Counted from the stretch's first letter, positions 2-31,121 are shown. The stretch: DNA of 64,000 nucleotides from Bacillota bacterium (GCA_023461435.1 JAEYLC010000031.1:23126-87125), one strand, 5' to 3'. The notes: a model not told the origin generated them from the sequence alone. Numbers and translations: made by a program.

Positions 2-211
2 ATTCGGGCGGCCGTTTGCCACGACAACTTTTCCGCAGAACGGTCGCGGCTCAGTAACGACGCGAACGTGCTGTGCATGGGCGCGCGCGTGATCGGCATC
101 GAGCTCGCGAAGAAGATCACATCGGAATGGATCAGCCTGGATTTCGTTGACGGCAGTTCGACACCAAAGGTCAACGCGATCAAAGACATAGACGCCGCTA
201 ATTTTTGCTGA
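2..211 (+). CDS. RpiB/LacA/LacB-family sugar-phosphate isomerase, C-terminal fragment (5' part outside window)
   Basis: Absent from the ORF track because no start lies in the window. Frame 2 reads IRAAVCHDNFSAERSRLSNDANVLCMGARVIGIELAKKITSEWISLDFVDGSSTPKVNAIKDIDAANFC, then TGA at 209-211. The C.D..SA...R.HN.ANVL..GARVIG..LA pattern matches the C-terminal half of RpiB-type isomerases. Confidence 0.75.
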   Translation: MRAAVCHDNFSAERSRLSNDANVLCMGARVIGIELAKKITSEWISLDFVDGSSTPKVNAIKDIDAANFC

Positions 212-228
212 GAGGGAGGGGCGGGATA

Positions 229-1011
229 ATGAACAAAATGCTTTACATGGGCACGAACCTGAAAATGTACAAGACAACGAAAGAAACGGTTTCGTACCTG
301 ACAGAACTTGACGAATTAACACGGGACTTAGGCAGAACGGAACTCACCTTGTTTGTTATCCCGTCCTATACTTCTTTGGAAAGCGCGAGAAAATGCGTCC
401 CGCGTGAGGGCATCAAGCTGGGCGCTCAAAACATGTACTGGGAAGACCAGGGGCAGTTTACAGGTGAAATTTCGCCGCTCATGATCAAGGAAACGGGCGC
501 CGAGATCATAGAAATCGGGCACAGCGAGCGCAGGCATGTGATCGGAGAGACTGATCAGCAGGAAAACAAGAAGGTGCTTGCCGCATTGCGCCACGGTTTC
601 ACAGCCTTATTGTGTATCGGAGAAACAAAAGAGCAAAAAGATTTAAATATCAGCGATGAGATACTGAGCGCTCAGCTCAAAATCGGTCTGAGCGGGGTTA
701 AAAAGCAGGAGATCGGCCGGATCTGGATCGGATACGAACCGGTCTGGGCGATCGGGGTCAACGGGACCCCGGCCTCCGCTGAATACGCGGACGAAAAGCA
801 TGGCGTCATCAAGTGTGTGCTGAGCGAGATGTTCGGAGAAGACGGCGCGCAAATCCCGGTGTTGTACGGCGGGAGCGTCAATCCGCAGAACGCCTCGGAG
901 CTCATCGTTAAACAGAATATCGACGGGCTATTTGTCGGCAGGAGCGCGTGGAACGCGCCGGAATTCAACAGCCTGATCCGGCAAGTCATGCCTCTTTACA
1001 ATAGGAAATAA
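229..1011 (+). CDS. triosephosphate isomerase family protein (divergent paralogue)
   Basis: ORF 205-1011. ATG 229 follows GAGGGAGGGG. TIM hallmarks are present: GTNLKMY (Lys region), IEIGHSERR (catalytic His) and IGYEPVWAIG (catalytic Glu). The canonical AIGTGK is replaced by AIGVNGT. Confidence 0.85.
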   Translation: MNKMLYMGTNLKMYKTTKETVSYLTELDELTRDLGRTELTLFVIPSYTSLESARKCVPREGIKLGAQNMYWEDQGQFTGEISPLMIKETGAEIIEIGHSERRHVIGETDQQENKKVLAALRHGFTALLCIGETKEQKDLNISDEILSAQLKIGLSGVKKQEIGRIWIGYEPVWAIGVNGTPASAEYADEKHGVIKCVLSEMFGEDGAQIPVLYGGSVNPQNASELIVKQNIDGLFVGRSAWNAPEFNSLIRQVMPLYNRK

Positions 1012-1048: not shown

Positions 1049-1657
1049 ATGAGCGATTTTGGCAAATTAAAAGACGATATGATCCTTGCGGCCGCACGCG
1101 CCTATACCCGCGGTATTCAAACGGGCAGCGGAGGCAACTTCAGCGCGCGTGTGTCCGGCCAGGACCTGATGATCGTGAAGTCAAGCGGCGGCTCGTTTAT
1201 GGACGCCACGAGAGACAACCTGCTTGTGACGGACTTTGACGGCAATGTGGTCGAGGGAGAAGGAAAACCGACCCGGGAAGCGCTGCTGCACGGGTTCATC
1301 TATAAAATAGCCCCGCTGGTGAACGGTGTGATGCACTGTCACGCACCTTGGTCAATCGGCTGGGCGTATACCAAAAAGCCGCTTGACGGTGTGACGCTGC
1401 ATACGCAGCTCAAATTCGGCTGTCCCATCCATGTGCTCGATGTCAAAACGCCCATGGTGGAAGCTAAGGATTTTCCGCTCGTTCAGCAGCTTTTTGACGA
1501 GAACCCAAAGCTTCCGGCGTTTCTGCTTGTCGATCACGGCATTGTCGCGGTGGGTGACACGGTGATCAACGCGGAGCATAACGCCGAGCTGGTGGAAGAA
1601 ACGGCAATGGTCGCTTTCCTGAAGATCATTGCACGCACCAAGCTTCAGGAAGACTAA
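1049..1657 (+). CDS. class II aldolase/adducin-domain protein (FucA / L-ribulose-5-P 4-epimerase / tetronate-P decarboxylase-like)
   Basis: 202-aa ORF with GGNFSARV, EALLHGFIY and VMHCHAPW, a His-rich metal site typical of the class II aldolase fold. An RBS-like GAGTGGAG lies upstream. Confidence 0.85.
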   Translation: MSDFGKLKDDMILAAARAYTRGIQTGSGGNFSARVSGQDLMIVKSSGGSFMDATRDNLLVTDFDGNVVEGEGKPTREALLHGFIYKIAPLVNGVMHCHAPWSIGWAYTKKPLDGVTLHTQLKFGCPIHVLDVKTPMVEAKDFPLVQQLFDENPKLPAFLLVDHGIVAVGDTVINAEHNAELVEETAMVAFLKIIARTKLQED

Positions 1658-1751: not shown

Positions 1752-1804
1752 AACGTACGGCGATTGGTGATTTAGGCCAAAAAAAAATGGGAGGAAGACA
1801 AAAC

Positions 1805-2992
1805 ATGAAGAGAGCAATGTTATTGACGCTCGTGCTGATGCTTGCAGTGGGCATGGCTTTAACTGGATGCAGCGCACCTTCGGAGAGCTCCGCGCCGGCT
1901 GAAAGCAGCGCAGCGGTATCGGAATCGGCCGCACCGGCTGATGAATCAGCGCCGGCTGAAACGAGCGAAGAAGCGGCACCGCAGGAAAGCCGTTCGGCAT
2001 TCTCTACCGATCTTCTGGCAAGCGAAGCTGACACCACGCCTGTTGACCCCGCCGAATTGCCCATAACGGGAATCGGACCTGAGGTGACCACCGATGTGAA
2101 AGCCAACGAGTCCTATAAGATCGCGATCGTTGTGAAGAACACCACAAACCCGTTCCTTCTCAAATCCATCGTCGGCGCGGAAAAAGCGGCCGCAGATATG
2201 GGCTTTGAATGCATCTCGCTGGCTCCGGCCACGCAGGACAGCCTGGAAGACCAGGTGAAGCTCATTGAAGATGCGATTCAGCAGGGCGTGCAGGGAATCA
2301 TTCTTCATCCGATCGATTCAAACGGCATCATGCCCGCGATCAGAAAATGTGACGAAGCCGGCATTCCCGTCGCCTGCATCGGCACACCCGCGGCCAACGA
2401 AACTTTCATGCGCACAGGCGTTGACTACACCGAGACAGGTGTGACAATCGCGACGATGGTGGCAGAGAAGCTCGGCGGCAAGGGCAAACTGATCATACTC
2501 GAGGGCCCTCCGGGAGCACAGAACGCGCAGGAAAGACTTGCGGGTATCAAAAAGGCTCTTGAAAGCTATCCCGACATCGAAGTTGTGGCTTCTCAGACAA
2601 CAAACTTCAAGAGAACAGAGGGTATGCAGGTCACAGAGAACCTTCTGCAAAAGTATCCTGATGTCAACGCGATCATCGGCTGCAACGATGAAAGCTCGCT
2701 TGGTGCCATTCAGGCGCTCAAGGCAGCCGGACTCGAAGGCAAAGTTGTGATCGGCAGCTTCGACGGCAACCAGGACGGCAGCGCGGCGATTAAGGCCGGT
2801 GAAATGTATGCGACATACAACGTTGACCCGGTTGGTTCCACATATCTGGCTGCGGCTTACATCGTGAAATTCCTGAACGACGGAACAATGCCCCCGAAAT
2901 ACTTTGTTCCCTTCCCGTCCACGCTTCAGGAACCTGTCATTACGGCTGAAAACATTGACAACTATATCGACAAAATTGCCTGGTGGAAATAA
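1805..2992 (+). CDS. sugar ABC transporter substrate-binding lipoprotein (CUT2/RbsB-like fold)
   Basis: ORF 1787-2992. ATG 1805 lies 8 nt after GGGAGGAAG. The signal peptide has lipobox LTGC, followed by a Ser/Ala/Glu/Pro-rich linker. A periplasmic-binding-protein type I core follows (KIAIVVKNTTNPF, GIILHPIDSN, IIGCNDESSLGA). Confidence 0.9.
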   Translation: MKRAMLLTLVLMLAVGMALTGCSAPSESSAPAESSAAVSESAAPADESAPAETSEEAAPQESRSAFSTDLLASEADTTPVDPAELPITGIGPEVTTDVKANESYKIAIVVKNTTNPFLLKSIVGAEKAAADMGFECISLAPATQDSLEDQVKLIEDAIQQGVQGIILHPIDSNGIMPAIRKCDEAGIPVACIGTPAANETFMRTGVDYTETGVTIATMVAEKLGGKGKLIILEGPPGAQNAQERLAGIKKALESYPDIEVVASQTTNFKRTEGMQVTENLLQKYPDVNAIIGCNDESSLGAIQALKAAGLEGKVVIGSFDGNQDGSAAIKAGEMYATYNVDPVGSTYLAAAYIVKFLNDGTMPPKYFVPFPSTLQEPVITAENIDNYIDKIAWWK

Positions 2993-3035: not shown

Positions 3036-3063
3036 GCCCCGTCTCCTCCTGGTGAGACGGGGC
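3036..3063 (+). other. intercistronic GC-rich stem-loop after the binding-protein gene
   Basis: GCCCCGTCTC-ctcctggt-GAGACGGGGC, a 10-bp perfect stem with no U-tract. It sits between the SBP and ATPase genes, where such hairpins usually act as mRNA-stability or partial-termination elements. Confidence 0.5.
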
Positions 3064-3129
3064 CGGCCCCTGAGCTTTGAGTTTGTACAAATAAAAGCTA
3101 TGACCCATAGCAGCTATGAGGTGAGTAAT

Positions 3130-4633
<1,504 letters not shown>

Positions 4634-4644
<11 letters not shown>

Positions 4645-5599
4645 ATCAGCAAAACCGGCGAAAGCCGTCAACTTCATCAAGAACATACCTCCTGTTTTTT
4701 GGATACTGGTGGTGATGATGGTCGGATTCGGCTCATTCTCATCCAACTATTTTGAATTCAAAAACCTGCAGAACATACTGGTCCAGTCCGTGCCGCTTAT
4801 GCTCGTGGCGTACGCGCAGACGCTGGTCATACTGACAGAGGGCGTTGACCTGTCGCTCGGATCACAGGTCAGTCTGGTCACGGTTTTATGGGTCTTCTTT
4901 ATGCAGATGGGCATGCCGTGGCCGGTGGCGGCGCTTATCGCGGTGGTCTGTTCAATGATATCGGGCGCTGTGAACGGTGTGATCATCGCCAAATGGAAGG
5001 TGCCTCCGTTTATCGTCACGCTCGGCATGCAGAACATTCTCTACAGCGTCGCGCTGCTGATCACCAAGGGGTCTTCCATCTATTATGCGAACAAGATATT
5101 CCAGACAATCTCCGAAACCATATTCATAGGGTTTCCGCTGATCGTTTGGATCACCGCGCTGATGTTCGTGCTGACATGGATGATTCTTTACCATACCCGG
5201 GTCGGCGCGAGGATATTCGGCCTCGGCGGCAACGCGGAAGCGTTGGTTCTCGCGGGCGTTAACGTGATCAAGCCGACCGTGTTTGTGTATGCGTTCGCGG
5301 GCTTTTTGACGGCAATAAGCGGTTTGTTAACCACCTGCAGGCTCGAATCCGGCCAGCCGATTGTCGGCCAGGGCTGGGAGTTTCAGGCGGTTGCGGCCAC
5401 GCTGCTCGGCGGGACATCCTTCAAGGAGGGCAAAGGCGGTCTTGGCGGCACCATACTCGGCGTGCTGCTGATCACCATGCTCAAAAACGGTCTGAATCTG
5501 GTCCATCTGCCGTCCATCTATCAGAATGCGATCATAGGCATTATCATACTTGCGGCGATTGTCGTTGACAGTACGATACGCCGTATGAAAGAGAATTAG
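4634..5599 (+). CDS. ABC sugar transporter permease (RbsC/branched-chain-type TMD)
   Basis: ORF 4544-5599. ATG 4634 lies 4 nt after GGAGGTGAG and overlaps the ATPase stop. The protein is polytopic and hydrophobic, with TEGVDLSLGS and GG.S..GG.GG motifs typical of CUT2 permeases. Confidence 0.85.
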
Positions 5600-5609: not shown

Positions 5610-6569
5610 ATGAAAAATTATTTCAATAAAATGAAACGATTCAGGTCGTTCTATAGCATCATAGGGCTGCTGTTCGTGGTTGTGGTCTCGTCGATTGCGA
5701 TAAGGGAGTTTATGACCCTTAATAACGTGATCACACTGTTCCGGCAGGCGAGCACACTGCTCGTGCTCAGCACAGGGCTCACGGCGGTCATACTCACAAG
5801 CGGCATTGACTTAAGCGTCGGCGCGGTATCGGGGCTTGTCGGTTGTATCGTGGCTCAGTTTTTGAAGATGGGCATTCCCGCGCCGCTGACCTTCATCATC
5901 GCGATCGCGTTCGGCGCGCTGTTCGGGCTGTTCAACGGATTCCTTGTGGGAACGGTCAAAATGCCGCCGTTTATCGCGACGTTCGGCATGAGCTGGGTGG
6001 CGAGCGGACTATCCATCATCGTCATGAACGGCGAGGTGATATTCGGCCTCGCGGATGATTTCACATGGTTTGGCACCGGCTATATCGGGCCGATTCCCGT
6101 GATCGCGATCATCGCGCTGATCGTGGTGGTGATCACTTATTTCATACTCCAAAAGACCACCTTCGGCAGAGACGTCTACGCGATCGGCGCCAATCAGGAT
6201 GCCGCCAAGTACTCGGCGGCGCCCGTGAAAAAGACGCTGTACTGGGCGTTTATATTCTCCGGTATTACCGCGGGTATCGGCGGCCTGCTGATGACGGCAA
6301 GGCTCAACGCGGCCGATTCGACGATGGGCGATTCATACGGCTTGCAGACGGTTGCGGCGGTTGTTGTCGGCGGCACATCGCTGCTGGGCGGCGAGGGCAG
6401 CGTGACCGGTACGGTCATCGGGGCGCTGCTGCTGACCATCATCATGAACGTGATGAATCTGCTGGGCATATCCTCCTTTGCTCAGCCGGCCATTGTCGGC
6501 GTCGTTATCATCGCGATGGTGCTGTTTGATTCGTACACACGGCATAAGCAGGCCACAGCGCTGAAATAA
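5610..6569 (+). CDS. ABC sugar transporter permease (second TMD)
   Basis: 319-aa hydrophobic ORF with SGIDLSVGA, PPFIATFGM and VVGGTSLLGGEGSV. RBS AGGAGGA lies upstream. Confidence 0.9.
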   Translation: MKNYFNKMKRFRSFYSIIGLLFVVVVSSIAIREFMTLNNVITLFRQASTLLVLSTGLTAVILTSGIDLSVGAVSGLVGCIVAQFLKMGIPAPLTFIIAIAFGALFGLFNGFLVGTVKMPPFIATFGMSWVASGLSIIVMNGEVIFGLADDFTWFGTGYIGPIPVIAIIALIVVVITYFILQKTTFGRDVYAIGANQDAAKYSAAPVKKTLYWAFIFSGITAGIGGLLMTARLNAADSTMGDSYGLQTVAAVVVGGTSLLGGEGSVTGTVIGALLLTIIMNVMNLLGISSFAQPAIVGVVIIAMVLFDSYTRHKQATALK

Positions 6570-6682: not shown

Positions 6683-7387
6683 ATGAATATGGAATTGTCG
6701 AATATTGAAAGATCTCAAAAAATTAAATATCAAAGAATGCCCGAGCTTGTGAAAGAGCAGCTGATGGACTGGATTATGGACGGCACGATTTCGATGGGCG
6801 AAAAGCTCAACGCCGAAGATCTGGCGTCCAGAATGGGTGTGAGCAGAATGCCGGTCAGAGAAGCGCTGAAAAGCATGGAGAAATCCGGCATTGTGCATTC
6901 CATTCCCTATGTGGGAACAAGAGTCGCCGAGCTTCAGATGACAGACATTGTTCAAATTTATCTGATGCGCGAGGCGCTTGAGCCGCTTGCCGCTTATTAC
7001 GCGTGCAAAAACATCACGGAATCAAAATTAAACGCTATTGAGAGCCTTCATTCAAGGCTTGAAAATGTGATCAGTGAGCCGACCCCGAACGCCAAGCAGA
7101 TATTCGTGCTGAACCGTGATTTTCATTTTGAAATCTACAATGCGAGCAATATGAAATACATGATCAACATCATCGCGACGCTTTGGGATAATCTCGCTTT
7201 TTACAAGCTGATCTACGGCCGAAAATATGCGACGGACAAAAACAGCGCGCTGGGTATGCTCGGCGAACACAAGGCATATATGGAGAACTTGAAAAACGGG
7301 CAGGCTAAAGAATTAAAAACCTTGATGCATGATTCGCTGCACCGGCGTGTGCTGGAGCTTAAGGATCAGGTCACATACGAGATATAA
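6683..7387 (+). CDS. GntR-family transcriptional regulator with FCD (FadR C-terminal) domain
   Basis: The N-terminal winged HTH reads LNAEDLASRMGVSRMPVREALKSMEKSGIV. The C-terminal part is helical (FH.EIY...). The start may be the ATG at 6689. Confidence 0.9.
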   Translation: MNMELSNIERSQKIKYQRMPELVKEQLMDWIMDGTISMGEKLNAEDLASRMGVSRMPVREALKSMEKSGIVHSIPYVGTRVAELQMTDIVQIYLMREALEPLAAYYACKNITESKLNAIESLHSRLENVISEPTPNAKQIFVLNRDFHFEIYNASNMKYMINIIATLWDNLAFYKLIYGRKYATDKNSALGMLGEHKAYMENLKNGQAKELKTLMHDSLHRRVLELKDQVTYEI

Positions 7388-7437: not shown

Positions 7438-7737
7438 ATGGACTACACAATGACGGAATGCGGAGGGTGCTTGACCTGCGAAATTGCATGCTCATATAAG
7501 CACAACAAAGAATTCAACCATCTCATTTCCAGCATTGAAATCGTTGAGCTGGAGAACGAACAGGGATACAAAGTACGCCTGATTGAAGACCCTTCAACGG
7601 GCAGAATACCATGCGACGGATGCCTCGGCAGTGAGCCGATGTGTCTTTCGTATTGTCCGAAACGCGAAGAATTAAAAGCGATCCTCGATCGGCACATTGC
7701 AGAGCGCATCAAGAAAGGGGAGAGCAAGCATGAATAA
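7438..7737 (+). CDS. small 2x[4Fe-4S]-type ferredoxin-like protein, probable electron-transfer partner of the AOR
   Basis: 99 aa with CGGCLTCEIAC (C-x2-C-x2-C-x3-C) and CDGCLGSEPMCLSYCP (C-x2-C-x6-C-x3-CP). Its stop overlaps the AOR start through ATGAATAA. Confidence 0.75.
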   Translation: MDYTMTECGGCLTCEIACSYKHNKEFNHLISSIEIVELENEQGYKVRLIEDPSTGRIPCDGCLGSEPMCLSYCPKREELKAILDRHIAERIKKGESKHE

Positions 7738-9661
7738 GTGTTACGGTATTACCGGCAATACGCTGCGCGTCAATCTGACAAGCAGAGAAATCAAGGTTGA
7801 GGACAACTCGGTTTATTACCGTGATTTTTTAACGTCGAGCGGCTACGCGGCGAAGATCATATACGATGAAGTGAAGGACTGGGTGACACCGTTTGATCCC
7901 ACAAACAAGGTGATCTTTTCGGCCGGTGCGCTGATCGGCACGGTGGCGCCCGGCGCGTGCAAGATGAACATCAGCACGATCGGCCCGATGACGGGCGGCT
8001 GGGCGACGGGCTCGAGCGACAGCTATGTGGCCATGGAGCTAAAGCACGCCGGATACGACGCGATCATCGTGGAAGGGCGCAGCCACAGGCCCTGCTATCT
8101 TTACGTGACCGACGAAAAGGTCGAGATTCGGGACGCGACGGCGCTATGGGGCAAAACCACGTGGGAGACGCTCGACGCGATACGCGAGGAGCTGCAAGAC
8201 CCCAAGCTGCATATCATATCGATCGGGCCGGCGGGTGAAAATCTCGCGCGCGGCGCCTGCGTGATACAGGACCGCGGCCGCGGCTTCGGCCGCTGCGGCA
8301 CGGGCGCGGTGATCGGCTCGAAGAATTTGAAGGCCATCGTCTGCAAGGGCAAAAAGCCGATACAGGTGGCCGATCCCGAAAAATTCATGCAGGTGGCGAT
8401 GCGCTGCCGCAAAAAGATCACTGATTGCCCCGAAACCGAACGGTTCCGCAAATACGGCACGCTCGGCATATTCCAGCACAAGCAGGATATGGGCGCGATC
8501 CCGTACAGGAACTCGCAGGAGAGCGTGTTCCCCGAGGATACGGATGTCACGATGGACCCTGTGCAGGTCATCGATAAATACACGGTTTCCAAGCAGAACT
8601 TCCCGGGTTGCCCGATCGGCTGCGGCCGCCACGTGACGATCGCGGACGGGCCTTACAAAGGGCTTACGGCGGAGTTCAACCATTGGGAGGCTTTTGGCAC
8701 CATCGTGGGCCGCTGCGCGGTGACCGAGCCCACGTTTATGGTGAAGGTGACGGCCTATTGCAACGAGATGGGCATCGATTTCAATCTGGCGGGCTGCGCG
8801 ATCGCGTGGGCGATGGAGTGCTATCAGCGCGGCATACTCACCAAAGAGGATACGGACGGCATGGCGCTTGAGTGGGGCAACGAACCCCAGATACTCGAGC
8901 TGATTCGCAAGATGAGCTATCGAGAGGGCTTTGGCAACATACTCGCGGAGGGCAGCAAGCGCGCAGCCGATATTATCGGCAGGGATTCGGGCTATTACGC
9001 GATGCACATCAAGGGGCAGGATCTCTATGAGTGTCTGCGCGGCTCCAACGCGTGGGCTCTGGGAGCCACGGTATCCACGCGCGGCGGCGGCCATACCACC
9101 GGCACCTGCGGCTATGAGCAGGCGATCAATGTGGACAAGGAAAAGGCATATCAGGTGCTCGGCATCCGGAACGTGGAAGATCCTTTAAGCTACGAAGGCA
9201 AGGCGGAGGTGACATATCTGTTTGAGGTGCTTCACCGCATCGACAACTCAACGGGCATCTGCCATCAGAACACGATATACAACAAGCTCGATTATCTCGT
9301 CGTGGCGGATATCGCGGAAATGCTGTCTGCGGCCACCGGCATCGAGATGAGCGCGCAGGACCTTGAGGACATCGCGCAGCGTCAGATCAACCTTGAGAAA
9401 GCGATTAACGCGCGCTTCACGGATTTTGCGCGTAAGGACGACCTTCCGACGCCGCGCGACCAGACCGAGCCGCTCCATGCGGGTAAAATGGACGGCTGGA
9501 AGCTCGATATGGATAAATACAACGGCATGCTCGACCGCTATTATGAGTTGCACGGCTGGGATAAGCAAACAGGTTATCCCAAACGCAGCACGCTCGAAAA
9601 GTACGGCATCGGCTATGTGGCCGATGAGCTCGAGCGCAGAGGCAAGCTCGGCCGGGAATAA
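7730..9661 (+). CDS. aldehyde:ferredoxin oxidoreductase (AOR) family, tungsten/molybdo-pterin enzyme
   Basis: ORF 7697-9661, with the internal ATG 7730 coupled to the upstream stop. The N-terminus GITGNTLRVNLTSREIKVED, the size (about 643 aa) and CPIGCGRH in the Fe-S/pterin region fit the AOR family. Confidence 0.85.
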   Translation: MNKCYGITGNTLRVNLTSREIKVEDNSVYYRDFLTSSGYAAKIIYDEVKDWVTPFDPTNKVIFSAGALIGTVAPGACKMNISTIGPMTGGWATGSSDSYVAMELKHAGYDAIIVEGRSHRPCYLYVTDEKVEIRDATALWGKTTWETLDAIREELQDPKLHIISIGPAGENLARGACVIQDRGRGFGRCGTGAVIGSKNLKAIVCKGKKPIQVADPEKFMQVAMRCRKKITDCPETERFRKYGTLGIFQHKQDMGAIPYRNSQESVFPEDTDVTMDPVQVIDKYTVSKQNFPGCPIGCGRHVTIADGPYKGLTAEFNHWEAFGTIVGRCAVTEPTFMVKVTAYCNEMGIDFNLAGCAIAWAMECYQRGILTKEDTDGMALEWGNEPQILELIRKMSYREGFGNILAEGSKRAADIIGRDSGYYAMHIKGQDLYECLRGSNAWALGATVSTRGGGHTTGTCGYEQAINVDKEKAYQVLGIRNVEDPLSYEGKAEVTYLFEVLHRIDNSTGICHQNTIYNKLDYLVVADIAEMLSAATGIEMSAQDLEDIAQRQINLEKAINARFTDFARKDDLPTPRDQTEPLHAGKMDGWKLDMDKYNGMLDRYYELHGWDKQTGYPKRSTLEKYGIGYVADELERRGKLGRE

Positions 9662-9681: not shown

Positions 9682-10914
9682 ATGAAAACGATCGCGATCA
9701 TACTGAGCATAGACACCAAGGAAGCCGAAGCGCGGTTCCTCAAAAAATGCGTGGAGCAGCGCGGCCACAAGGCGCTCGTGATTGATCTCTCCACGCGAGG
9801 CACCTATGATTTCGTGCCCGATGTGACGCGGGAAGAAGTCTGCCTCGCGGGCGGAACGGAGCCGTCCGCGCTTGCGGGGATGCCGAAAAACGAGGCGGTC
9901 CAAGCGATGATGGACGGCGCAAAAGCCATCGTGCCGTATCTGTTTGCGAAAGGCGCTTTCGACGGCATCATCTCCGCGGGCGGCCTTCAGAACACGATGG
10001 CGGCGGCGGGCGCGATGCAAACGCTGCCCTTGGGCGTGCCCAAGGTGATGGTGTCTACGGTAGCCTGCGGCAACCGCAGCTTTGAGCCGTTCGTGGGCAT
10101 CAAGGATATCATCATGATCCCGTCCATCGCCGACATCACAGGCATCAACTCGGTGACCGAGGTGATACTCGGCAACGCGGCGGCCGCGGTGATCGGTATG
10201 GCGGAGCAGTCAAGGCTGCTCCCGAAGGACGGCAAAACGCGCATTGGTACCACGCTGATGGGCGTGACCAACAACTCGGCGGTGCAGGCGGCGCGTTTGC
10301 TTGAAGCGCAGGGCTATGAGGTGATCAGCTTTCATTCCACGGGCGTCGGCGGCAGGTATCTTGAATATCTGATCGGAGAAGGGCTCATTACGGCGTCAAT
10401 GGATCTCTCGCTGCATGAGGTGATCGCGGCGGATGTGTTCAACCTTGGGTTTTCGAACGGCGCACCGGGCAGGCTCAAGGTGGGCTGCGAAAAGGGCATA
10501 CCGATGGTCGTCGCGCCGGGCGCGCTCGATTTTGTGGACATGTATCTGGCGGATTTTAAAAACGGCATTATCGGCGACTGGACGCAGCGCAAGTACAATT
10601 TGCACAACAATGCGGTGGCGCATGTGAAGGCGTTCGCGCATGAATCGAAGAAAGCCGCAGAAATCGTTGTGGAGAGGCTCAATCAGGCAAAGGGTCCGGT
10701 CACGGTGCTGCTGCCGCTGCGCGGCTTGCGCGTGGATACGCTGCCGGGACAGAGCCTGTATGATCCCGAGGTGGACGAGACGATACTGGGTGTGTTCCGC
10801 GCGGGGCTTGACAAACGCATCAAACAGATCGAGGTGGACGCCAACCTCACGGATATGGCGTTCAGTGAAGCGGCGGCAGCAGAGATGGCGGCGCTCATCG
10901 AAAACAAGCAATAA
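9682..10914 (+). CDS. UPF0261 / Tm-1-like ATP-binding domain protein
   Basis: 410 aa. The family call rests on my recognition of MKTIAIILSIDTKEAEARFLKK...ALVIDLS and the overall two-lobe layout, not on a search. Confidence 0.6.
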   Translation: MKTIAIILSIDTKEAEARFLKKCVEQRGHKALVIDLSTRGTYDFVPDVTREEVCLAGGTEPSALAGMPKNEAVQAMMDGAKAIVPYLFAKGAFDGIISAGGLQNTMAAAGAMQTLPLGVPKVMVSTVACGNRSFEPFVGIKDIIMIPSIADITGINSVTEVILGNAAAAVIGMAEQSRLLPKDGKTRIGTTLMGVTNNSAVQAARLLEAQGYEVISFHSTGVGGRYLEYLIGEGLITASMDLSLHEVIAADVFNLGFSNGAPGRLKVGCEKGIPMVVAPGALDFVDMYLADFKNGIIGDWTQRKYNLHNNAVAHVKAFAHESKKAAEIVVERLNQAKGPVTVLLPLRGLRVDTLPGQSLYDPEVDETILGVFRAGLDKRIKQIEVDANLTDMAFSEAAAAEMAALIENKQ

Positions 10915-10928: not shown

Positions 10929-12173
10929 ATGTATTTTGAACTTCCTTTTGATAACACGGTTTCAATCTCGGACGAAGATTATGTGATCGCGACTTATTTT
11001 GCGTTCGGCATCACGAACGCCGCGGCGCTCAAAAAAGCGGGCCAGTTTGCGACCGGGCAGAGCGTCGGCACATGGCTGCCGCTGCCCGGCGTGACGCAGG
11101 ACATGGTGGAAAACTGGCAGGCCCGCGTGCTCGCCGTGTATCCGCTGCCCACCGAGGAAAGCATTACCGTGCTGCGGGTCGCGTTTCCGCATCACAATTT
11201 TGCGTCGAGCTTCGCGATGATGCTGACCGCGATGGTCGGCAACGACGTATCCACGGCGCTGCGCATCAAGCTCGTGGATCTCGAGCTGACACCCAAGGCG
11301 CTAAAGGCTTACACAGGCCCGAAGCAGAGCATTGAGGGTTGGCGAAAAGCCACGGGCGTTTATGACAGGCCGCTCGTGCTCAACATGATCAAGCCGTGCC
11401 TTGGGTTCGCGCCGAAGCGCGGCGCAGAGCTGTTTTACCAGAGCGGGCTCGGCGGCGTGGATCTCATCAAGGACGACGAGGTGTTCGGCAACACGACGGT
11501 CAGCAGCGTGGCCGGGCGCCTGAAAGCATACAACGCGGCGGCTCGGCGGCTTAAAGAGGAAACGGGCAAAGCTCCGGTCTATATTGTGAATATCACGGAT
11601 ACGCCAAGACGCATGCGCGAGCATGCGCAGGCCGTGATCGGCGAAGGCGGAAAAGCAGCTATGGTCAATTTCGTGTCCACCGGCATTGACGCGCTGCGCG
11701 AGCTTACCGACGAATTCGGCGAAAAGCTCTGCTTCCTCGCGCATTACGCGGGTGCAGGCATGATGAATTCGCCGCAGATCGGCATTGCGGGCAATGTGAT
11801 GCTCGGTGTGCTGCCGCGACTGGCCGGTGCCGATTCTGTGATGACGATGTATGCGGGTTCGGCCGATACGCATGAGCTGTTTGAGTGCCTGCAGACGGTG
11901 CAGAAGCAGAAGCTGCCGATGGGCGGCATTAAGCCGGTCATGACCTCTCTCGGGGGCGGCATCACGCCGCTGTCTATTGGCAGCACGGCCAAAACCTTCG
12001 GCAACGACGTGATACTCGGCGTGGGCGGCGCGGTGCAGGGGCACCCGATGGGCACGACGGCGGGCGCCAAGGCCGTGATGGCGGCGCTCAGCGGCGCCAT
12101 GCAGGGCAAAGAGCTTGACGAGATTGCCGCAGGTTCGCCCGAGCTTCAGGCCGCGATCGACGCGTGGCAATAG
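10929..12173 (+). CDS. RuBisCO-like protein (form IV RbcL homologue, not a carboxylase)
   Basis: GGVDLIKDDE matches the RuBisCO GG.DF.KDDE carbamyl-Lys/metal motif. IKPCLG corresponds to IKPKLG. LGGGITP and GVGGAVQGHPMG match the two phosphate-binding loops. The catalytic His residues of the HIH region are replaced (RLAGADSVM). Confidence 0.85.
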   Translation: MYFELPFDNTVSISDEDYVIATYFAFGITNAAALKKAGQFATGQSVGTWLPLPGVTQDMVENWQARVLAVYPLPTEESITVLRVAFPHHNFASSFAMMLTAMVGNDVSTALRIKLVDLELTPKALKAYTGPKQSIEGWRKATGVYDRPLVLNMIKPCLGFAPKRGAELFYQSGLGGVDLIKDDEVFGNTTVSSVAGRLKAYNAAARRLKEETGKAPVYIVNITDTPRRMREHAQAVIGEGGKAAMVNFVSTGIDALRELTDEFGEKLCFLAHYAGAGMMNSPQIGIAGNVMLGVLPRLAGADSVMTMYAGSADTHELFECLQTVQKQKLPMGGIKPVMTSLGGGITPLSIGSTAKTFGNDVILGVGGAVQGHPMGTTAGAKAVMAALSGAMQGKELDEIAAGSPELQAAIDAWQ

Positions 12174-12211: not shown

Positions 12212-13234
12212 ATGACATCACGAGATCGCATGTTAAAGACGCTGGCGCACGAGGACACGGACGTCGTTCCGATATTCCCGAAGATCGCGTTTTCCAATGT
12301 GATTGCGGCCAAGGGTATCACGGTCAGAGATTTCATGACCGACGCGGCCAAGATGGCCGAGGCGACGATGGCGGCCCAGAAGCTCTTCGGGTGGGATGCC
12401 GTCGCGCTGCATACCGATATCGGCAGCGAGGGCAAGGCGCTCGGCAGCGTTTATGAGCAGCCTGTGAACGCGCCCTCACATATCGTGAAATACCTGCTCG
12501 ACGATATCGGCGAGTGCGGGAAGATCGTCGTACCGGACCCGCATCGCACAGCGCCGATGAAGACGGTCATCGAAGCCGTCAAGATCGTGAAAGAGAAAAT
12601 CGGCCAAGAGGTTTATGTACAGGCATGGACGAACGGGCCGCTCAACGTGGCCAGCCAGATATTGAAGCTCGATGAGCTGCTTATCGCGGTCTATGACGAC
12701 CCGGACGCGCTGCACCTGGTGCTGGAGCGCTGTCTGGAAACGGCGGTCGTTTACGCGAGGGCGCTCGCAGAAGCGGGCGCGGACGCTGTGGCGTTTGGCC
12801 ATGCGATGGCGTCGACCTCGGTGATTTCGAGAAAGCAGTATGAGGAGTTTGCGCTCCCGTATGAAAAAGAGCTGATATCGGCGATCCATCAGGTCGGGGC
12901 GGCGGCCATCACGCATATCTGCGGCAACACCGAGCCGATTATCGACCTCATCGCACAGAACGGCAGCGATATCATCGATTTCGATCATGTCTGCCGCATA
13001 GACGTTCTGAGAGAAAAAGCGCCCGATAAGATATTCCGCGGCAACATCGACCCGGCGCTGCTTGCCCTGGGAACACAGGAAGAAGTCTGTGAGGCGGTCA
13101 AAGTACTGATGGCGGCGGACGGACGCTCCGGGCGGTTCATATTGGGCTCGGGCTGCGAGGTCGCGCTGAACACGCCGGTTGAAAACCTAAACGCGTTTGT
13201 GCAGGCGGGAAGGGAATTCGGAAAGCTCGGTTAA
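12212..13234 (+). CDS. uroporphyrinogen-decarboxylase (URO-D) family protein, MT2/MtaA-like subtype
   Basis: 340 aa with a URO-D-like N-terminus (RDRMLKTLAHEDTDVVP). It carries ITHICGNT and ILGSGCEV, an H-x-C...C arrangement typical of Zn-dependent MtaA/MtbA/MtsA-type methyltransferases rather than HemE (NLGHG). Confidence 0.7.
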   Translation: MTSRDRMLKTLAHEDTDVVPIFPKIAFSNVIAAKGITVRDFMTDAAKMAEATMAAQKLFGWDAVALHTDIGSEGKALGSVYEQPVNAPSHIVKYLLDDIGECGKIVVPDPHRTAPMKTVIEAVKIVKEKIGQEVYVQAWTNGPLNVASQILKLDELLIAVYDDPDALHLVLERCLETAVVYARALAEAGADAVAFGHAMASTSVISRKQYEEFALPYEKELISAIHQVGAAAITHICGNTEPIIDLIAQNGSDIIDFDHVCRIDVLREKAPDKIFRGNIDPALLALGTQEEVCEAVKVLMAADGRSGRFILGSGCEVALNTPVENLNAFVQAGREFGKLG

Positions 13235-13540: not shown

Positions 13541-13574
13541 AGCAGATCAGTTTGCATCCGCAAGCTGCTCATTG

Positions 13575-13606
13575 CCCTTTTCAAAATGGTTGAGAGGGGT
13601 TTTTTT
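13575..13606 (+). terminator. putative expression platform: terminator-like hairpin whose 3' arm is the RBS of the first gene
   Basis: CCCTTTT (13575-81) pairs with AGAGGGG (13593-99), including G-U pairs. A T7 run (13600-06) follows, then TTG 13608. GAGAGGGG is also the only plausible RBS. Confidence 0.45.
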
Positions 13607-13607
13607 A

Positions 13608-14648
13608 TTGAAAAAAGGCTTAAGGCCGATCGCCGTTTTGGGCATAATCGCCGTCATGAGCGGTCTTCTTATCGGCTGTGCAGCAGAAAAGCTTAAGGGC
13701 GATGCCGTGACTGCCGGTGAAATCGCATTAACGGGGCTGGCCGGGGGAGAGCGAGTCATCACAGTGGATGAGATCAAAAAGCTCGAACCGTTTGAGGGAC
13801 ATGTGGAAGGGGCAGACTCTCAAGGAAACGTGATTGAGACCGACATCAAGGGGGGGCGGCTCAGTGAGCTGCTCGCGCTTTATGGTATCAACCAAACCGA
13901 TTTAAACGGTATCCGGCTGACAGCGTCAGACGGCTATTCCATAGAGGTGCCGCATGAGATTCTGGCGCGGCGTGATGTGATACTCGCCTACGAGACGGAC
14001 GGTCAGCCGCTCGATAAGGACAACGCGCCTGTTCACGTGTTTATCCCCGAAGAAAGAGCGATGTACTGGGTACGCATGCTCAGCAAAATCGAAGTCATTG
14101 AGGCGGCGCTCGGCGAAACGGCGACGGGTGTGACCATCATGGAATCTGCTTATGACAAAAACGATTACACCGATTTTGAGCTGAACGGGCAGACATATGC
14201 GGCGCTCGATACGCGAAAAATTTTGGCTGACGGTACTGGCGCGGATACCGTGCGGATGCTTGCGGCGGACGGGCTTGAAAAGAACGAGACACTGGAGAAC
14301 TTTTATAAAGGCGTCATTCAGCTGGAGGGAGAAAATGCGCCGCAGTTTGCGTCCGATACATTGCCAATCGGCATGTCTGTGAAAAAGCTGCTGGTGATTC
14401 AAAGCGGCACGCAGGCATTTTACTTCTTAAGCAGCGCCGAAGCGACAGACGGATCGGTTAGTCTTGAAAAGATAGCGAAAGACTGCGGTCTTGCAGAGGC
14501 CGATGCGTATGTGCTGCGTTTTGATGATGGCGGCGAAAAAACGGTGACGCCTGAGGAGCTTAAGACATTGGCTGTGGGACCGGACGGCGAAATGCTCACG
14601 GAAGACGCACAGAAGAACCCCAAACTCATTTCGATTCAATTATTTTAG
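13608..14648 (+). CDS. lipoprotein with repeated molybdopterin-oxidoreductase-like (Oxidored_molyb fold) domains, function unknown
   Basis: ORF 13572-14648. TTG 13608 gives MKKGLRPIAVLGIIAVMSGLLIGC, a Sec-type lipobox without a twin-Arg. The region LSELLALYGI...IRLTASDGYSIEVPHEIL..RDVILAYETDGQPL...APVHVFIPEE.AMYWVRMLSKIEV resembles the YedY/sulfite-oxidase Moco-domain pattern. A second, weaker copy is present (MLAADGLEKNE...IQLEGENAPQF...VKKLLVIQ). Confidence 0.6.
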   Translation: MKKGLRPIAVLGIIAVMSGLLIGCAAEKLKGDAVTAGEIALTGLAGGERVITVDEIKKLEPFEGHVEGADSQGNVIETDIKGGRLSELLALYGINQTDLNGIRLTASDGYSIEVPHEILARRDVILAYETDGQPLDKDNAPVHVFIPEERAMYWVRMLSKIEVIEAALGETATGVTIMESAYDKNDYTDFELNGQTYAALDTRKILADGTGADTVRMLAADGLEKNETLENFYKGVIQLEGENAPQFASDTLPIGMSVKKLLVIQSGTQAFYFLSSAEATDGSVSLEKIAKDCGLAEADAYVLRFDDGGEKTVTPEELKTLAVGPDGEMLTEDAQKNPKLISIQLF

Positions 14649-14660
14649 GAGGATGATATA

Positions 14661-15137
14661 ATGACAAAAAAGCTTTTGACTGCGGTATTGATCACAATGA
14701 TGGTCGTCTCGGCGCTGGCGGCTTGCGCGCCTGCGCCTGCGCAAACAGAGCAGGCGGCGTGGTCCGTTGAAGTGAAGGGCGCGGAAAAGGATGCTTTCAC
14801 GAGCGCGGATTATGCGAAGCTCGATCCCGTCACCATCGACACGGTGCTCAAAACCAAGGACGGCACTCAGGCGGACGAAGCATGGCAGGGCGTGCTATTA
14901 AAGGATGTGCTTAATGAGCTGGGCGTGAAGGATTACACCTCCATAACGCTCGAAGCATCGGACGGTTACGCGAAAGACTATACGCCGGACATCGTGAATG
15001 ATGATCAGACGATACTCGGCACCGTTGTCAACGGAAAAGCGCTGACGCAGGAGGATGGCTATGTGTGCGCGGTTCCGGCCAGCCAGCCGGGCAACATGCG
15101 CGTGAAGCTGCTCGTGAAAATCACGGTCAATGAATAA
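14661..15137 (+). CDS. small lipoprotein, single Oxidored_molyb-like domain (paralogue of 13608 and 15698)
   Basis: AGGAGG RBS and signal peptide with lipobox LAAC. The region WSVEVKGA...WQGVLLKDVLNELGV...ITLEASDGYAKDY...ILGTVVNGKAL...MRVKLLVKITV follows the domain pattern. No Cys is present in the W.G region where Moco enzymes carry their ligand. Confidence 0.6.
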   Translation: MTKKLLTAVLITMMVVSALAACAPAPAQTEQAAWSVEVKGAEKDAFTSADYAKLDPVTIDTVLKTKDGTQADEAWQGVLLKDVLNELGVKDYTSITLEASDGYAKDYTPDIVNDDQTILGTVVNGKALTQEDGYVCAVPASQPGNMRVKLLVKITVNE

Positions 15138-15705
15138 GAAAAAAGGGCTTCTCGCGTCGTACTCGGCGCGCGATCTGATCAACATTGCGCTGTGCGCTGC
15201 GCTCGGCATTGCCGTGAAGCCCATACTGACACCGCTCGTTCATATCGTCACCGGGCCGCTGGTTGTCCCCGGAGGAGCCATGGCGGGCGGCTTGTATATG
15301 CTGTTCATCATTGTGCCTGTCGGGCTCACAAAAAAACATGGCGCATCAACGCTCACCTGCCTGGTGCAGGCGCTGCTCATGATGGTTACGGGTGTGCCCG
15401 GCAGCCATGGCGTATTGAGCCTCGTGACGTATGTGCTGCCCGGCGTGGCGGTAGATCTTATTTCATTGACGGCGGTTAAAAAGGGGCTGAATGCGTTCAC
15501 TTGCCTGATCTGCGGGCTCGCGGCCAACACGGTCGGCTCGTTTCTGTCGAATCTGGTGTTTTTCCGGCTGCCGCTTGTGCCGCTTATGCTGATGCTTTTT
15601 ACCGCGGCGCTGTCCGGATGCTTCGGCGGGCTGATTGCGTGGCAGCTGATCAAGCGGCTGCGGCGGTTTGCTCCGGCTGTGGGGAAGGGAGAATCGCATG
15701 AATAA
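15130..15705 (+). CDS. six-TM integral membrane protein, ECF-transporter S-component-like
   Basis: 191 aa. By eye there are six hydrophobic spans. The N-terminal ARDLINIALCAALGIAV resembles S-component starts. Its start overlaps the upstream stop (ATGAATAA). No EcfA/EcfT genes are in the window. Confidence 0.5.
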   Translation: MNKKKGLLASYSARDLINIALCAALGIAVKPILTPLVHIVTGPLVVPGGAMAGGLYMLFIIVPVGLTKKHGASTLTCLVQALLMMVTGVPGSHGVLSLVTYVLPGVAVDLISLTAVKKGLNAFTCLICGLAANTVGSFLSNLVFFRLPLVPLMLMLFTAALSGCFGGLIAWQLIKRLRRFAPAVGKGESHE

Positions 15706-16204
15706 AAGAGTCTGGCTGATGGCGGATATCATTTTGCTGCTGGCGGCCGGTGTCGCCGTGTTCGTAATGCTGAATGCGCAAACGCTGCCAAATGGCGGAA
15801 GCGATGCTGTCACCATCATACAAAATGACCAGACGGTGACCTTTGATATTGCGTATTTAAAGGGGCTGTCCAAAACGACGTTTACCGCAAATCTCGATAC
15901 CAACGGGCAGGACCCGGTGGAAAAAACCTTCGGCGGTGTGCCGCTCACCGATGTGCTCAAAGGCATGGGGTTTGATTTGAGCGGCGCGTCTCAGGTCGTC
16001 TTCAAAGCGTCAGACGGCTATTCGACGGTGGTGACGGCGGAGGAAGCAACGGATTCGGACAACGTTTATGTGGTTTATGAAAGGGACGGCAAGCCTTCGG
16101 GCACAATGGCGCAGGGCGGAACGGGCCCGATAGAGATCGTGATCAGAAAGGATGCGTTCTCCCAGCGCTGGTGCAAGTACCTGCGGGAGATTGACATCGA
16201 GTGA
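15698..16204 (+). CDS. membrane-anchored Oxidored_molyb-like domain protein (third paralogue)
   Basis: ORF 15668-16204. ATG 15698 overlaps the upstream stop (ATGAATAA). An N-terminal TM span (VWLMADIILLLAAGVAVFVML) is followed by FGGVPLTDVLKGMGF...VVFKASDGYSTVV...VYVVYERDGKP...GPIEIVIRKD...RWCKYLREIDI. Confidence 0.6.
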   Translation: MNKRVWLMADIILLLAAGVAVFVMLNAQTLPNGGSDAVTIIQNDQTVTFDIAYLKGLSKTTFTANLDTNGQDPVEKTFGGVPLTDVLKGMGFDLSGASQVVFKASDGYSTVVTAEEATDSDNVYVVYERDGKPSGTMAQGGTGPIEIVIRKDAFSQRWCKYLREIDIE

Positions 16205-16274
16205 GCGCGTCTTGCTTCAAGTGCCTGCTGTTTAGGGCAATTATTTCGCTGTACAATAATACTGGGAGCAGCTT

Positions 16275-25208: not shown

Positions 25209-25285
25209 CACGGGCAAGTGATATTTTTACGGATTTTTGGATACTTAATGGTAATACATATTACAAACAATTTATGGAGGTAGCC

Positions 25286-26515: not shown

Positions 26516-26526
26516 AACACCTCCAT

Positions 26527-26570
26527 TAAAAGCAGGAGGCCCTCGCACCAGCGAGGGCCTCCTGCTTTTT
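26527..26570. terminator. bidirectional intrinsic terminator between convergent genes
   Basis: AGCAGGAGGCCCTCGC-acca-GCGAGGGCCTCCTGCT, a 16-bp perfect stem flanked by AAAA on the 5' side and TTTTT on the 3' side. Confidence 0.9.
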
Positions 26571-26605
26571 GAGAGCTTGCGATAAAAAGATATGGATAAG
26601 GAGGA

Positions 26606-27493: not shown

Positions 27494-27516
27494 AATATTT
27501 TACCTCCGTAATTGCT

Positions 27517-28452: not shown

Positions 28453-28464
28453 TGTTTGCTCCTT

Positions 28465-30113: not shown

Positions 30114-30199
30114 AAATAATCGATCCCTTACAAATATTATTTTGATACGTTCAGATGATTGCGATTCATTGCACAGAGCGAATATGCTGTTATGATAAA

Positions 30200-31119: not shown

Positions 31120-31121
31120 GT

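Follow-up and report, generated by a model that had tools for sequence, protein, structure and literature searches.

A RuBisCO-like protein of a distinct 'NMIKPCxG' clade encoded in a predicted sugar-acid operon of a Bacillota bacterium

To our knowledge, RuBisCO-like proteins (RLPs, form IV) are the main evidence on how the RuBisCO active site evolved; only a handful of their clades have assigned reactions, and all characterised members act on a monophosphate. Here we describe an RLP encoded at positions 10929–12173 of a 64,000-nucleotide stretch of DNA from a Bacillota bacterium (GCA_023461435.1, JAEYLC010000031.1:23126-87125; the whole stretch is called the window hereafter), together with the operon in which it lies. 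In RuBisCO, K175 is the proton donor to the aci-acid of 3-phosphoglycerate. MtnW has its catalytic lysine (Lys98 in G. kaustophilus) where RuBisCO has N123. The R. rubrum RLP (3QFW), a 5-methylthio-D-ribulose-1-phosphate 1,3-isomerase, and the RLPs of C. tepidum and R. palustris (1TEL/1YKW, 2QYG) share the fold and perform enediolate chemistry on a monophosphate, in contexts of sulfur or methylthioadenosine metabolism. OiaX is an RLP that decarboxylates 3-oxo-isoapionate-4-phosphate (PMC6302742, citing Carter 2018). The isomerases LerI and DerI, the latter of the RpiB family, convert L-erythrulose-1-phosphate to erythrose-4-phosphate; an epimerase links the two erythrulose-1-phosphate epimers, and D-erythrulose-1-phosphate requires this 3-epimerase before LerI and DerI can act. 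Class II aldolases of the FucA/RhaD type interconvert dihydroxyacetone phosphate (DHAP) plus formaldehyde and D-erythrulose-1-phosphate (PMC10733421).

Active site and family placement of the RLP

The 414-codon open reading frame (ORF) begins with ATG and has an AGGAGAG Shine-Dalgarno sequence 7 nt upstream. Its product matched RuBisCO_large (PF00016, 1e-41) and RuBisCO_large_N (PF02788, 2e-7) in Pfam, and it combines the N-terminal alpha+beta domain and the C-terminal (beta/alpha)8 barrel of RbcL homologues. The AlphaFold model (pLDDT 90.6, pTM 0.90) gave Foldseek template modelling scores of 0.85–0.92 against RLP and RuBisCO structures (0.85–0.88 for 1TEL and 2QYG). Residues were mapped in spinach numbering with a MAFFT alignment of 197 sequences, including the form I enzymes of spinach and C. 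necator (Cupriavidus), form III 6HUN, B. subtilis MtnW (2ZVI), 4NAS from Alicyclobacillus acidocaldarius, two PGAP-annotated OiaX proteins, 119 homologues and 70 metagenomic relatives; as a check on the spinach reference sequence, 20 of 20 canonical residues fell at their canonical numbers.

All six motifs quoted in a preliminary description of the gene, which had been made from the sequence alone, were located in the translation: IKPCLG (residues 154–159, DNA 11388–11405), GGVDLIKDDE (175–184), FLAHYAGAG (269–277), RLAGADSVM (297–305), LGGGITP (341–347) and GVGGAVQGHP (364–373). Residues kept in the RLP (spinach/RLP) are T65/T48, W66/W49, N123/N105, K175/K155, K201/K181, D203/D183, E204/E184, H294/H272, G380/G343, G381/G344, G403/G366 and G404/G367. 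Changed residues are E60 to G43, T173 to M153, K177 to C157 (codon TGC, 11397–11399), R295 to Y273, H298 to A276, H325 to S303, H327 to M305 and S379 to G342, and the loop carrying K334 is lost. These correspondences bear out what had been read from the motifs, namely a retained Lys175 with Cys in place of Lys177, an intact carbamylated Lys with its Asp/Glu metal ligands, a retained His294 with Tyr in place of Arg295, and the loss of His325 and His327. Phmmer alignments to 6HUN, 2ZVI and 4NAS, made independently, gave the same correspondences, and no gap placement brought a Lys to position 177, in agreement with the phmmer alignment to 6HUN.

The RLP thus has the form IV pattern, in which K201, D203 and E204 are kept and several of the ca. 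19 carboxylase active-site residues are replaced; the complete RuBisCO catalytic set (E60, K177, R295, H327, K334, S379) was not present. The product of 10929–12173 is an RLP of form IV and is predicted to be non-carboxylating, and the earlier expectation that it does not fix CO2 held against both these residues and the NCBIfam RuBisCO cut-offs, all of which were missed. The residues with which RuBisCO binds Mg2+ and forms an enediolate beside a phosphorylated CH2 group are kept, namely the carbamylatable K181, D183/E184, K155, H272, N105 and the phosphate site described below, whereas the residues for CO2 addition (E60, K334), K177 and the whole second phosphate site have been lost. Four invariant polar residues specific to the clade and without a RuBisCO counterpart (Q44, D106, N152 and Q370) may be the ligands of the substrate's non-phosphate end.

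In RuBisCO, T65/W66 and the backbone amides of G381, G403 and G404 hold the 1P phosphate, and R295 and H327, joined in the open state by H298, hold the 5P phosphate (PMC3153676). The 1P site of the RLP is complete (T48, W49, G344, G366, G367), but the 5P equivalents R295, H298 and H327 are all replaced (Y273, A276, M305). Because the 1P site is intact and the 5P site is gone, a single phosphate on the substrate is predicted, and a bisphosphate is unlikely. The preliminary description had both phosphate loops kept and a substrate with two anionic ends. The glycine loops are indeed present, but they form one site (1P); of the two kinds of substrate envisaged, phosphate plus carboxylate fits the context, but a bisphosphate does not agree with the lost 5P site. 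Support for phosphate plus carboxylate comes from the lactonases, the TRAP transporter gene of one relative, the FCD regulators, the aldehyde:ferredoxin oxidoreductase (AOR) and the parallel with OiaK/OiaX, all described below. We infer a monophosphorylated acid-sugar substrate, with enediolate chemistry at its P-CH2-C(=O) end. In contrast to the other RLPs compared, the clade combines a RuBisCO-like enolisation core (N123/T65/W66/K175) with the loss of the 5P site and of the residues for carboxylation, and would offer a clean natural 'half-RuBisCO' for mechanistic study.

The RLP missed every curated NCBIfam cut-off: it scored 258 bits against 409 for the MtnW model NF007095 (PRK09549), 193 against 513.6 for the MtnW model TIGR03332, 208 against 497 for form III (TIGR03326), 197 against 438 and 112 against 489 for the RuBisCO models PRK04208 and PRK13475, and 152 against 700 for OiaX (NF042437). 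In a neighbour-joining tree, which is a small distance tree and not a full phylogeny, 4NAS and 2ZVI were sister to the whole 'NMIKPCxG' family (190 tips), with OiaX and forms I and III outside. This family comprised 624 proteins at E <= 1e-20, and 523 metagenome loci were confirmed. Among the 119 homologues (48–94% identity), N123, K175, K201, D203, E204, H294, G380/381 and G403/404 were invariant, with Tyr at position 295 in 115 and Met at position 327 in 111. The members came from peat, digester, human gut and fermentation metagenomes, and included the cultured anaerobe Pectinatus frisingensis, Treponemataceae and metagenome-assembled genomes (MAGs) of Clostridia; in a genome scan with this single protein as query, the closest genomes were five Bacillota/Christensenellaceae MAGs (77–91% identity). 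The exact sequence had no record in the database look-up, the database names of the cluster members were uninformative, and no function was assigned to the clade in any library or literature searched, including a search on RLPs with UPF0261, the clade names, 4NAS and recent work, which returned nothing on this clade. The RLP therefore belongs to a distinct, widespread and so far unassigned clade, mainly of anaerobic Bacillota. The comparison with form I, form III, MtnW and OiaX and the placement in the tree, both proposed in the preliminary description, upheld the residue correspondences and gave the RLP a clade of its own; the residue pattern is common, but within this clade and not in one with an assigned function. 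Many members are labelled MtnW enolase by JGI, which the residue test contradicts, and a substrate assignment would correct a widespread mis-annotation as MtnW enolase or RuBisCO.

The Cys at position 177 had been described as unusual. It is so in comparison with RuBisCO (Lys), B. subtilis MtnW (Val) and OiaX (Ala), yet hundreds of homologues and 4NAS (K-A-C) share it. Conservation in orthologues, which had been proposed as a check, was high, with Cys in 111 and Ser in 8 of the 119 homologues; these counts come from the word-based homologue list, since the metagenome loci were seeded with the KPC motif itself and are of no use for the Cys frequency. Cys157 is a signature of the clade and not peculiar to the window gene. 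The Ser-177 sequences formed a nearly monophyletic subclade (10 sequences inside a 16-tip clade), and at two of its loci (L020, L030) the neighbours UPF0261-RLP-TIM-AldII-GntR were unchanged. The unchanged gene context of this subclade makes an indispensable thiol unlikely; the thiol is probably dispensable, and Cys157 is most likely a small polar residue shaping the pocket where RuBisCO has Lys177, not an essential catalytic thiol. A role as the key novelty of the enzyme, that is, as catalytic nucleophile, metal ligand or redox switch, for example in a Lys-Cys NOS (nitrogen-oxygen-sulfur) bridge with K155, appears improbable. Its prevalence among the homologues and in 4NAS would fit such a role, as would the i/i+2 spacing on a beta strand, which should place K155 and C157 side by side, and Lys-Cys bridges are widespread among proteins (PMC8964421). 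However, besides the Ser subclade, B. subtilis MtnW and OiaX are active enzymes with Val and Ala at this position, and the hosts are of the strict-anaerobe type, which makes an oxidative switch less likely.

Gene neighbourhood and comparison with known RLP systems

All genes from the window start to position 13234 lie on the same strand with short gaps (Table 1). The first of them is cut by the window start, so that the operon begins upstream and its first genes are outside the view. A scan for promoters and terminators performed no better than on shuffled sequences.

Table 1. Genes of the RLP operon, with positions counted from the first nucleotide of the window
Product	Position	Strand	Basis or remark
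RpiB/LacAB-family isomerase, C-terminal 68 aa	2..205	+	truncated by window start
TIM paralogue, LerI type (predicted)	205..1011	+	Pfam TIM 4e-73
Class II aldolase/adducin-fold enzyme	1049..1657	+	Pfam Aldolase_II 7e-32
Ribose-type (Peripla_BP_4) substrate-binding lipoprotein, sugar ABC importer	1787..2992	+	Pfam
ABC importer ATPase, two ABC_tran domains	3052..4644	+	Pfam
ABC importer permease 1	4544..5599	+	Pfam BPD_transp_2
ABC importer permease 2	5610..6569	+	Pfam BPD_transp_2
GntR-family regulator with FCD ligand domain	6683..7387	+	Pfam GntR + FCD
Ferredoxin-like protein, 99 aa, two [4Fe-4S]-type Cys motifs	7438..7737	+	CGGCLTCEIAC...CDGCLG...CLSYCP
Tungsten/molybdopterin AOR family protein	7697..9661	+	Pfam AFOR_N 1e-66, AFOR_C 2e-93
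UPF0261 (Tm-1-like) ATP-dependent kinase, predicted	9682..10914	+	UPF0261 PF06792 1e-52, UPF0261_C PF23189 6e-55
RLP (form IV), 'NMIKPCxG' clade	10929..12173	+	Pfam, alignment, model
URO-D-fold protein, MtaA/CmuA methyltransferase type	12212..13234	+	Pfam URO-D 9e-67

When the ORFs of ca. 90 related loci were clustered, the recurrent neighbours of the RLP were UPF0261 (33 loci), the class II aldolase fold (30), TIM (28), RpiB (21), GntR/FCD (20) and a lactonase-like protein of the metallo-beta-lactamase (MBL) type (12); components of the ATP-binding cassette (ABC) importer also recurred. The commonest order was ABC - MBL - UPF0261 - RLP - RpiB - TIM - AldII - GntR, with UPF0261 immediately upstream of the RLP in 17 loci and RpiB after it in 15. 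Lactonase-like genes (MBL, MBL2/Lactamase_B_2 or Amidohydro_2) were present in most clusters, a TRAP DctP gene in one (L026), and an AOR gene with a small ferredoxin gene in or beside the cluster in L004, L007, L022 and L092, accompanied by a lactonase in the last two. The lactonases, the TRAP DctP, the FCD regulators and the AOR point to an acid sugar. In one further locus (L094), transketolase and transaldolase genes stood directly upstream.

The UPF0261 family was shown in 2025 to contain an ATP-dependent kinase, MarK (PMC12624787). MarK from Novosphingobium aromaticivorans (9MPY) was the best PDB match of the window protein (3.5e-50) and has the same two-domain fold. The window protein has both domains, and its K13 was aligned with the Lys of the DTK motif that contacts ATP (MarK K16, Tm-1 K20). 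The UPF0261 protein is predicted to phosphorylate the precursor of the RLP substrate. MarK acts on acetovanillone-type aromatics, whereas the context in the window is purely carbohydrate and the gene is swapped for a phosphotransferase system (PTS) or an FGGY kinase in relatives. Each of the 11 best-flanked loci (>=48% identity) contained exactly one phosphoryl donor, namely UPF0261 in eight, a Gat/Ula-type PTS in two and FGGY in one, and these three never occurred together. The UPF0261 family spans bacteria to plants, with no catalytic activity reported before 2025. This exchange makes a role as a sugar or sugar-acid kinase directly testable. The Pectinatus RLP cluster has the PTS and no UPF0261 gene; in P. 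frisingensis (L001, WIQR01000002.1, 1-14495) it is flanked on both sides by Transposase_mut and Y1_Tnp genes, which suggests a composite mobile element. In three peat metagenome loci (L094:14467-16320, - strand; L012; L015), a second, divergent pair of UPF0261 and class II aldolase-fold genes without an RLP lay beside the main cluster, and such a pair may work independently of the RLP. A sister subfamily from human-gut and other metagenomes (L035, L050, L054, L056), ca. 40% identical to the window RLP, had the layout RLP - Amidohydro_2 - PEP_hydrolase-like (PF09370) - UPF0261 - Lactamase_B_2 - RpiB - TIM; the TIM-barrel domain paired with UPF0261 in this layout is the one to which plant Tm-1 has it fused.

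The best PDB match of the TIM paralogue was LerI (11EF, 1.2e-60), the isomerase of L-erythrulose-1-phosphate; this match reached 208 bits, and the best true TIM 193. The paralogue has the LerI lid 'IGVNGTPA' and the 'GRSAW' motif, where TIM has 'IGTGKxA' and 'GGASL'; the two LerI signatures occurred in 22 and 24, respectively, of the 28 TIM paralogues beside this RLP family. By these signatures it is of the LerI type, closer to LerI than to TIMs by a modest margin. The RpiB fragment at the window start was 63% identical to the RpiB of locus L016 (tblastn, E 1e-25), and the RpiB proteins of L003 and L016 scored 143 and 140 bits on the model of DerI, which isomerises D-erythrulose-4-phosphate, against a cut-off of 240. 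The class II aldolase-fold protein remained under all NCBIfam cut-offs (best, L-ribulose-5-phosphate 4-epimerase subfamily, 103 bits; OtnC, 73; MtnB, 71), with 2IRP and 6VOQ as the best PDB matches, and could be an aldolase, epimerase, decarboxylase or dehydratase.

These partners resemble those of OiaX. On R. etli plasmid p42f, a NanR-type GntR/FCD regulator gene precedes OiaX - OiaK (DUF1537) - TIM - RpiB - PGDH_C protein - ribose-type ABC - Gfo/Idh/MocA, and its RpiB scored above the DerI cut-off (258 bits). The TIM paralogue of that cluster is 45% identical to that of the window, and in both systems the RLP is accompanied by a kinase, paralogues of TIM and RpiB, a GntR/FCD regulator and an ABC importer of the ribose type. 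The window cluster thus has a LerI-type TIM, an RpiB and a kinase, the last of another family (UPF0261 instead of DUF1537). In its layout it parallels the OiaK-OiaX-LerI-DerI cluster for D-apionate. The two RLPs share K175, the carbamylated K201, D203/E204, H294 and the glycine 1P site. However, OiaX has D60, F66, G123, A177, R295 and K334 where the window clade has G60, W66, N123, C177, Y295 and no K334, and the identity to the PGAP-annotated plasmid OiaX is <=31.5%. The window-type clusters additionally conserve a class II aldolase-fold gene, no ApnO/ApsD homologue is conserved in them, and the hosts are anaerobic Bacillota and relatives as opposed to Proteobacteria. In A. tumefaciens, an MBL lactonase gene lies directly upstream of OiaX on a plasmid; its similarity to the MBL lactonase of the RLP clusters was marginal (22% identity). 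The substrate-binding protein of the window importer was 32% identical to that of the R. etli cluster, scored 147 bits on RbsB and 127 on AlsB, both below cut-off, and had 2IOY as its best PDB match; it is of a generic ribose type and not diagnostic of apiose.

By profile and phmmer score, MtnW/YkrW and 4NAS are the closest named relatives of the window RLP. Like MtnW, the window RLP has no E60, R295, H327 or K334, and the MtnW substrate carries a single phosphate. MtnW has Lys at position 123, 'AHPAVSG' and S-A-G at 379–381, in contrast to Asn123, 'AHYAG' and G-G-G in the window clade; 4NAS, deposited as 'RLP (MtnW)', is MtnW-like in all three. The position of the MtnW catalytic Lys was Asn in the window RLP and in 119 of 119 homologues, and Lys in 2ZVI and 4NAS. 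No methionine-salvage gene (mtnK, mtnA, mtnB, mtnX, mtnD) was found in the window or the ca. 90 related loci, the nearest being the class II aldolase-fold gene (MtnB, 71 bits against a cut-off of 137). The other characterised RLPs are more distant in sequence (96 bits to 3QFW; 149–166 bits to 2QYG and 1YKW), and their sulfur-related contexts differ from the sugar-acid genes of the window. Form III RuBisCO (6HUN, 2CWX/2D69) is ca. 30–33% identical and has N123, T65/W66, K175 and the KDDE metal site in common with the RLP; unlike it, form III keeps E60, K177, R295, H298, H327 and S379 and carboxylates ribulose-1,5-bisphosphate (RuBP).

Candidate reactions and the proposed pathway

The operon most likely serves the breakdown of a rare plant sugar acid. 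In the pathway we propose, the ABC system would import a ribose-like sugar, which would be brought to the acid level, here by the ferredoxin-linked AOR and in most relatives by an MBL-type lactonase opening a lactone. The acid would then be phosphorylated once, by the UPF0261 kinase or, in relatives, by the PTS or FGGY kinase. The RLP would bind this monophosphate through its 1P site and form an Mg-stabilised 2,3-enediolate, most likely by beta-decarboxylation of a 3-oxo acid, as its distant relative OiaX does with 3-oxo-isoapionate-4-phosphate; protonation of the enediolate by K155 would yield erythrulose-1-phosphate. The LerI-type TIM paralogue and the DerI-like RpiB could convert this product to erythrose-4-phosphate, and the class II aldolase-fold enzyme could take the other erythrulose-1-phosphate epimer, either epimerising it or cleaving it to DHAP and a small aldehyde. 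We give a probability of roughly 45% to this model as a whole, in which the RLP forms an enediolate and is probably a beta-keto-acid decarboxylase supplying erythrulose-1-phosphate toward erythrose-4-phosphate. If the RLP does make erythrulose-1-phosphate by decarboxylation, the only possible beta-keto acid would, on chemical grounds, be 3-oxo-isoapionate-4-phosphate.

Several points weigh against this model. A beta-keto acid needs an oxidation beyond the aldonate, but the clusters share no universally conserved dehydrogenase, and the AOR is all that the window offers; the G3P-dehydrogenase-like gene of seven loci did not detectably resemble the putative ApnO of R. etli. The active site is far from that of OiaX, which keeps R295 and K334 and has no N123, and because active sites, identity and model score differ so strongly, the same function as OiaX is not implied by sequence. 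The nearest relatives in the small tree are MtnW-like and not OiaX. The co-occurrence of AOR and lactonase in L022 and L092 leaves room for the AOR to oxidise an aldehyde product instead, and the class II aldolase-fold protein could fill several roles. A simple replacement of the lactonase by the AOR was rejected, as both occur together in these two loci. A Ula-like route for L-ascorbate, which would fit the PTS type, the MBL lactonase and the epimerase-like aldolase, was also rejected: its phosphate would lie three carbons from the keto group, on the lost 5P side, and the LerI-type TIM would be unexplained.

The same enediolate could serve proton transfer only, with the RLP acting as a ketose-1-phosphate 3-epimerase or 1,2/1,3-isomerase and no C-C bond changed, for example between D- and L-erythrulose-1-phosphate (the role of EryC) or in a carbonyl migration as in the R. 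rubrum RLP. The retained K175, carbamylated K201, H294, N123 and 1P site are exactly the set for RuBP enolisation, a redox-neutral pathway would fit the absence of a conserved dehydrogenase, and D-erythrulose-1-phosphate needs a 3-epimerase before LerI and DerI (PMC10733421); RLP isomerases are also known (Imker 2008; Erb 2012; both as listed in PMC6302742). Nevertheless, we consider proton transfer alone unlikely, though not negligible: it leaves the hallmarks of an acid substrate (lactonase, TRAP and FCD) unexplained, 3QFW is among the weakest RLP matches (96 bits), and the epimerase role would then have a second candidate in the class II aldolase-fold protein. Cleavage of a C-C bond, by an OiaC-like transcarboxylase/hydrolase or a retro-aldol lyase in which K155 protonates an aci-carboxylate leaving group, would give DHAP or 3-phosphoglycerate and glycolate or a similar small acid. 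It is consistent with the invariance of the K175 equivalent in the clade, with genes for tartronate-semialdehyde reductase and a glycerate-kinase-type protein 13–15 kb away, and with redox neutrality if an aldonate phosphate is cleaved; PMC6302742 lists a transcarboxylase/hydrolase among apiose-pathway RLPs. Such cleavage appears improbable, however, because the conserved LerI-type TIM and RpiB would be left without a substrate and H327 and K334 are lost.

The similarity to MtnW raises the question of an MtnW-like tautomerase ('enolase') acting on a 2,3-diketo-1-phosphate supplied by an MtnB-like dehydratase of the class II aldolase fold, in a methionine-salvage-like or 5-deoxy-sugar route. 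Among named relatives, MtnW models and MtnW-like structures come closest (PRK09549, 258 bits; 4NAS, 5e-57; sister in the tree), MtnB is of the class II aldolase fold and the window neighbour reaches 71 bits on it, and methylthio and aldehyde products could be processed by the MtaA-like protein and the AOR. This possibility is very improbable given that both MtnW cut-offs were missed (258 < 409; 193 < 514), that the catalytic Lys is Asn in all 119 homologues, that mtnK, mtnA, mtnX and mtnD were found in no locus, and that the LerI-type TIM, RpiB and lactonase would be unexplained. A bona fide CO2-fixing RuBisCO, or another enzyme using a bisphosphate, has the fold and the KDDE metal site in its favour. 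It can practically be dismissed in view of the replaced or lost equivalents of E60, K177, R295, H298, H327, K334 and S379, the missed cut-offs of the form I, II and III models, and the absence of any phosphoribulokinase or RuBisCO small-subunit gene near the RLP.

The decarboxylase model can be carried further, to a new anaerobic pathway for a branched-chain plant-wall sugar from rhamnogalacturonan-II or apiogalacturonan, either D-apiose/D-apionate or, more speculatively, L-aceric acid. The AOR, UPF0261 and the RLP clade would then be unrelated recruits replacing aerobic enzymes: the ferredoxin-dependent AOR would take the place of an NAD-dependent dehydrogenase and a lactonase, the UPF0261 kinase would have the first carbohydrate substrate of its family, and the RLP would decarboxylate a tertiary beta-keto-acid phosphate. 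We regard this extension as possible, though doubtful. If true, the RuBisCO fold would have been recruited to OiaX-type chemistry a second time, independently and with another solution in the active site, where N123, C177 and Y295 were kept or gained and K334 and R295 were lost. Assignment of the substrate would also fill a gap in our view of how strict anaerobes use rare plant-wall sugars.

Other genes of the operon and the window

The 99-aa ferredoxin-like protein had no Pfam match, and the equivalent ORF in L092 had weak Fer4 matches. Such an ORF also lies upstream of the AOR gene in L004, L005 and L007, and its product is a probable electron acceptor of the AOR. In the window it slightly overlaps the listed AOR ORF, whose true start is probably slightly downstream of the TTG at 7697; the true start of permease 1 is likewise probably downstream of the listed GTG.

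The gene for the URO-D-fold protein closes the same-strand run. Its product scored 189 bits on TIGR01463 (mtaA_cmuA) against a cut-off of 235 and has H235-x-C237 and C315. No corrinoid protein was seen near this MtaA/CmuA-like gene with its HxC...C zinc motif. URO-D-family genes also stood beside UPF0261/RLP in L004, L011 and L036 (L036:3969-5102, L036:7365-8507). Rhamnogalacturonan-II contains 2-O-methyl sugars, which we mention for the MtaA-like gene as a mere thought.

A second sugar cluster occupies 25160–34878. It encodes a glycerate-kinase-type protein (DUF4147+MOFRL), a tartronate semialdehyde reductase that passed its cut-off with 489 bits, a transketolase split over two genes, an AP_endonuc_2 isomerase/epimerase, a divergent transaldolase-like protein, a rhamnulokinase-like FGGY kinase and two GntR/FCD regulators. 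Presumably it resembles the D-apiose isomerase/kinase/split-transketolase route, although no curated model confirmed this and NCBIfam gave no apulose or apiose names between 26.6 and 34.9 kb. Adjoining the operon with its tungsten/molybdopterin AOR is an odd molybdoenzyme-like set (13572–16781, + strand) of three Oxidored_molyb proteins, one of them a probable lipoprotein of 358 aa; an ECF/cobalt-type membrane component is interspersed among them, and MobB comes after. A protein of 1627 aa encoded on the - strand (17773–22656) has a calcineurin-like phosphoesterase domain at its N-terminus and Ig-like, Big_2 and InlB-B repeats at its C-terminus, and is probably a surface-anchored phosphoesterase.

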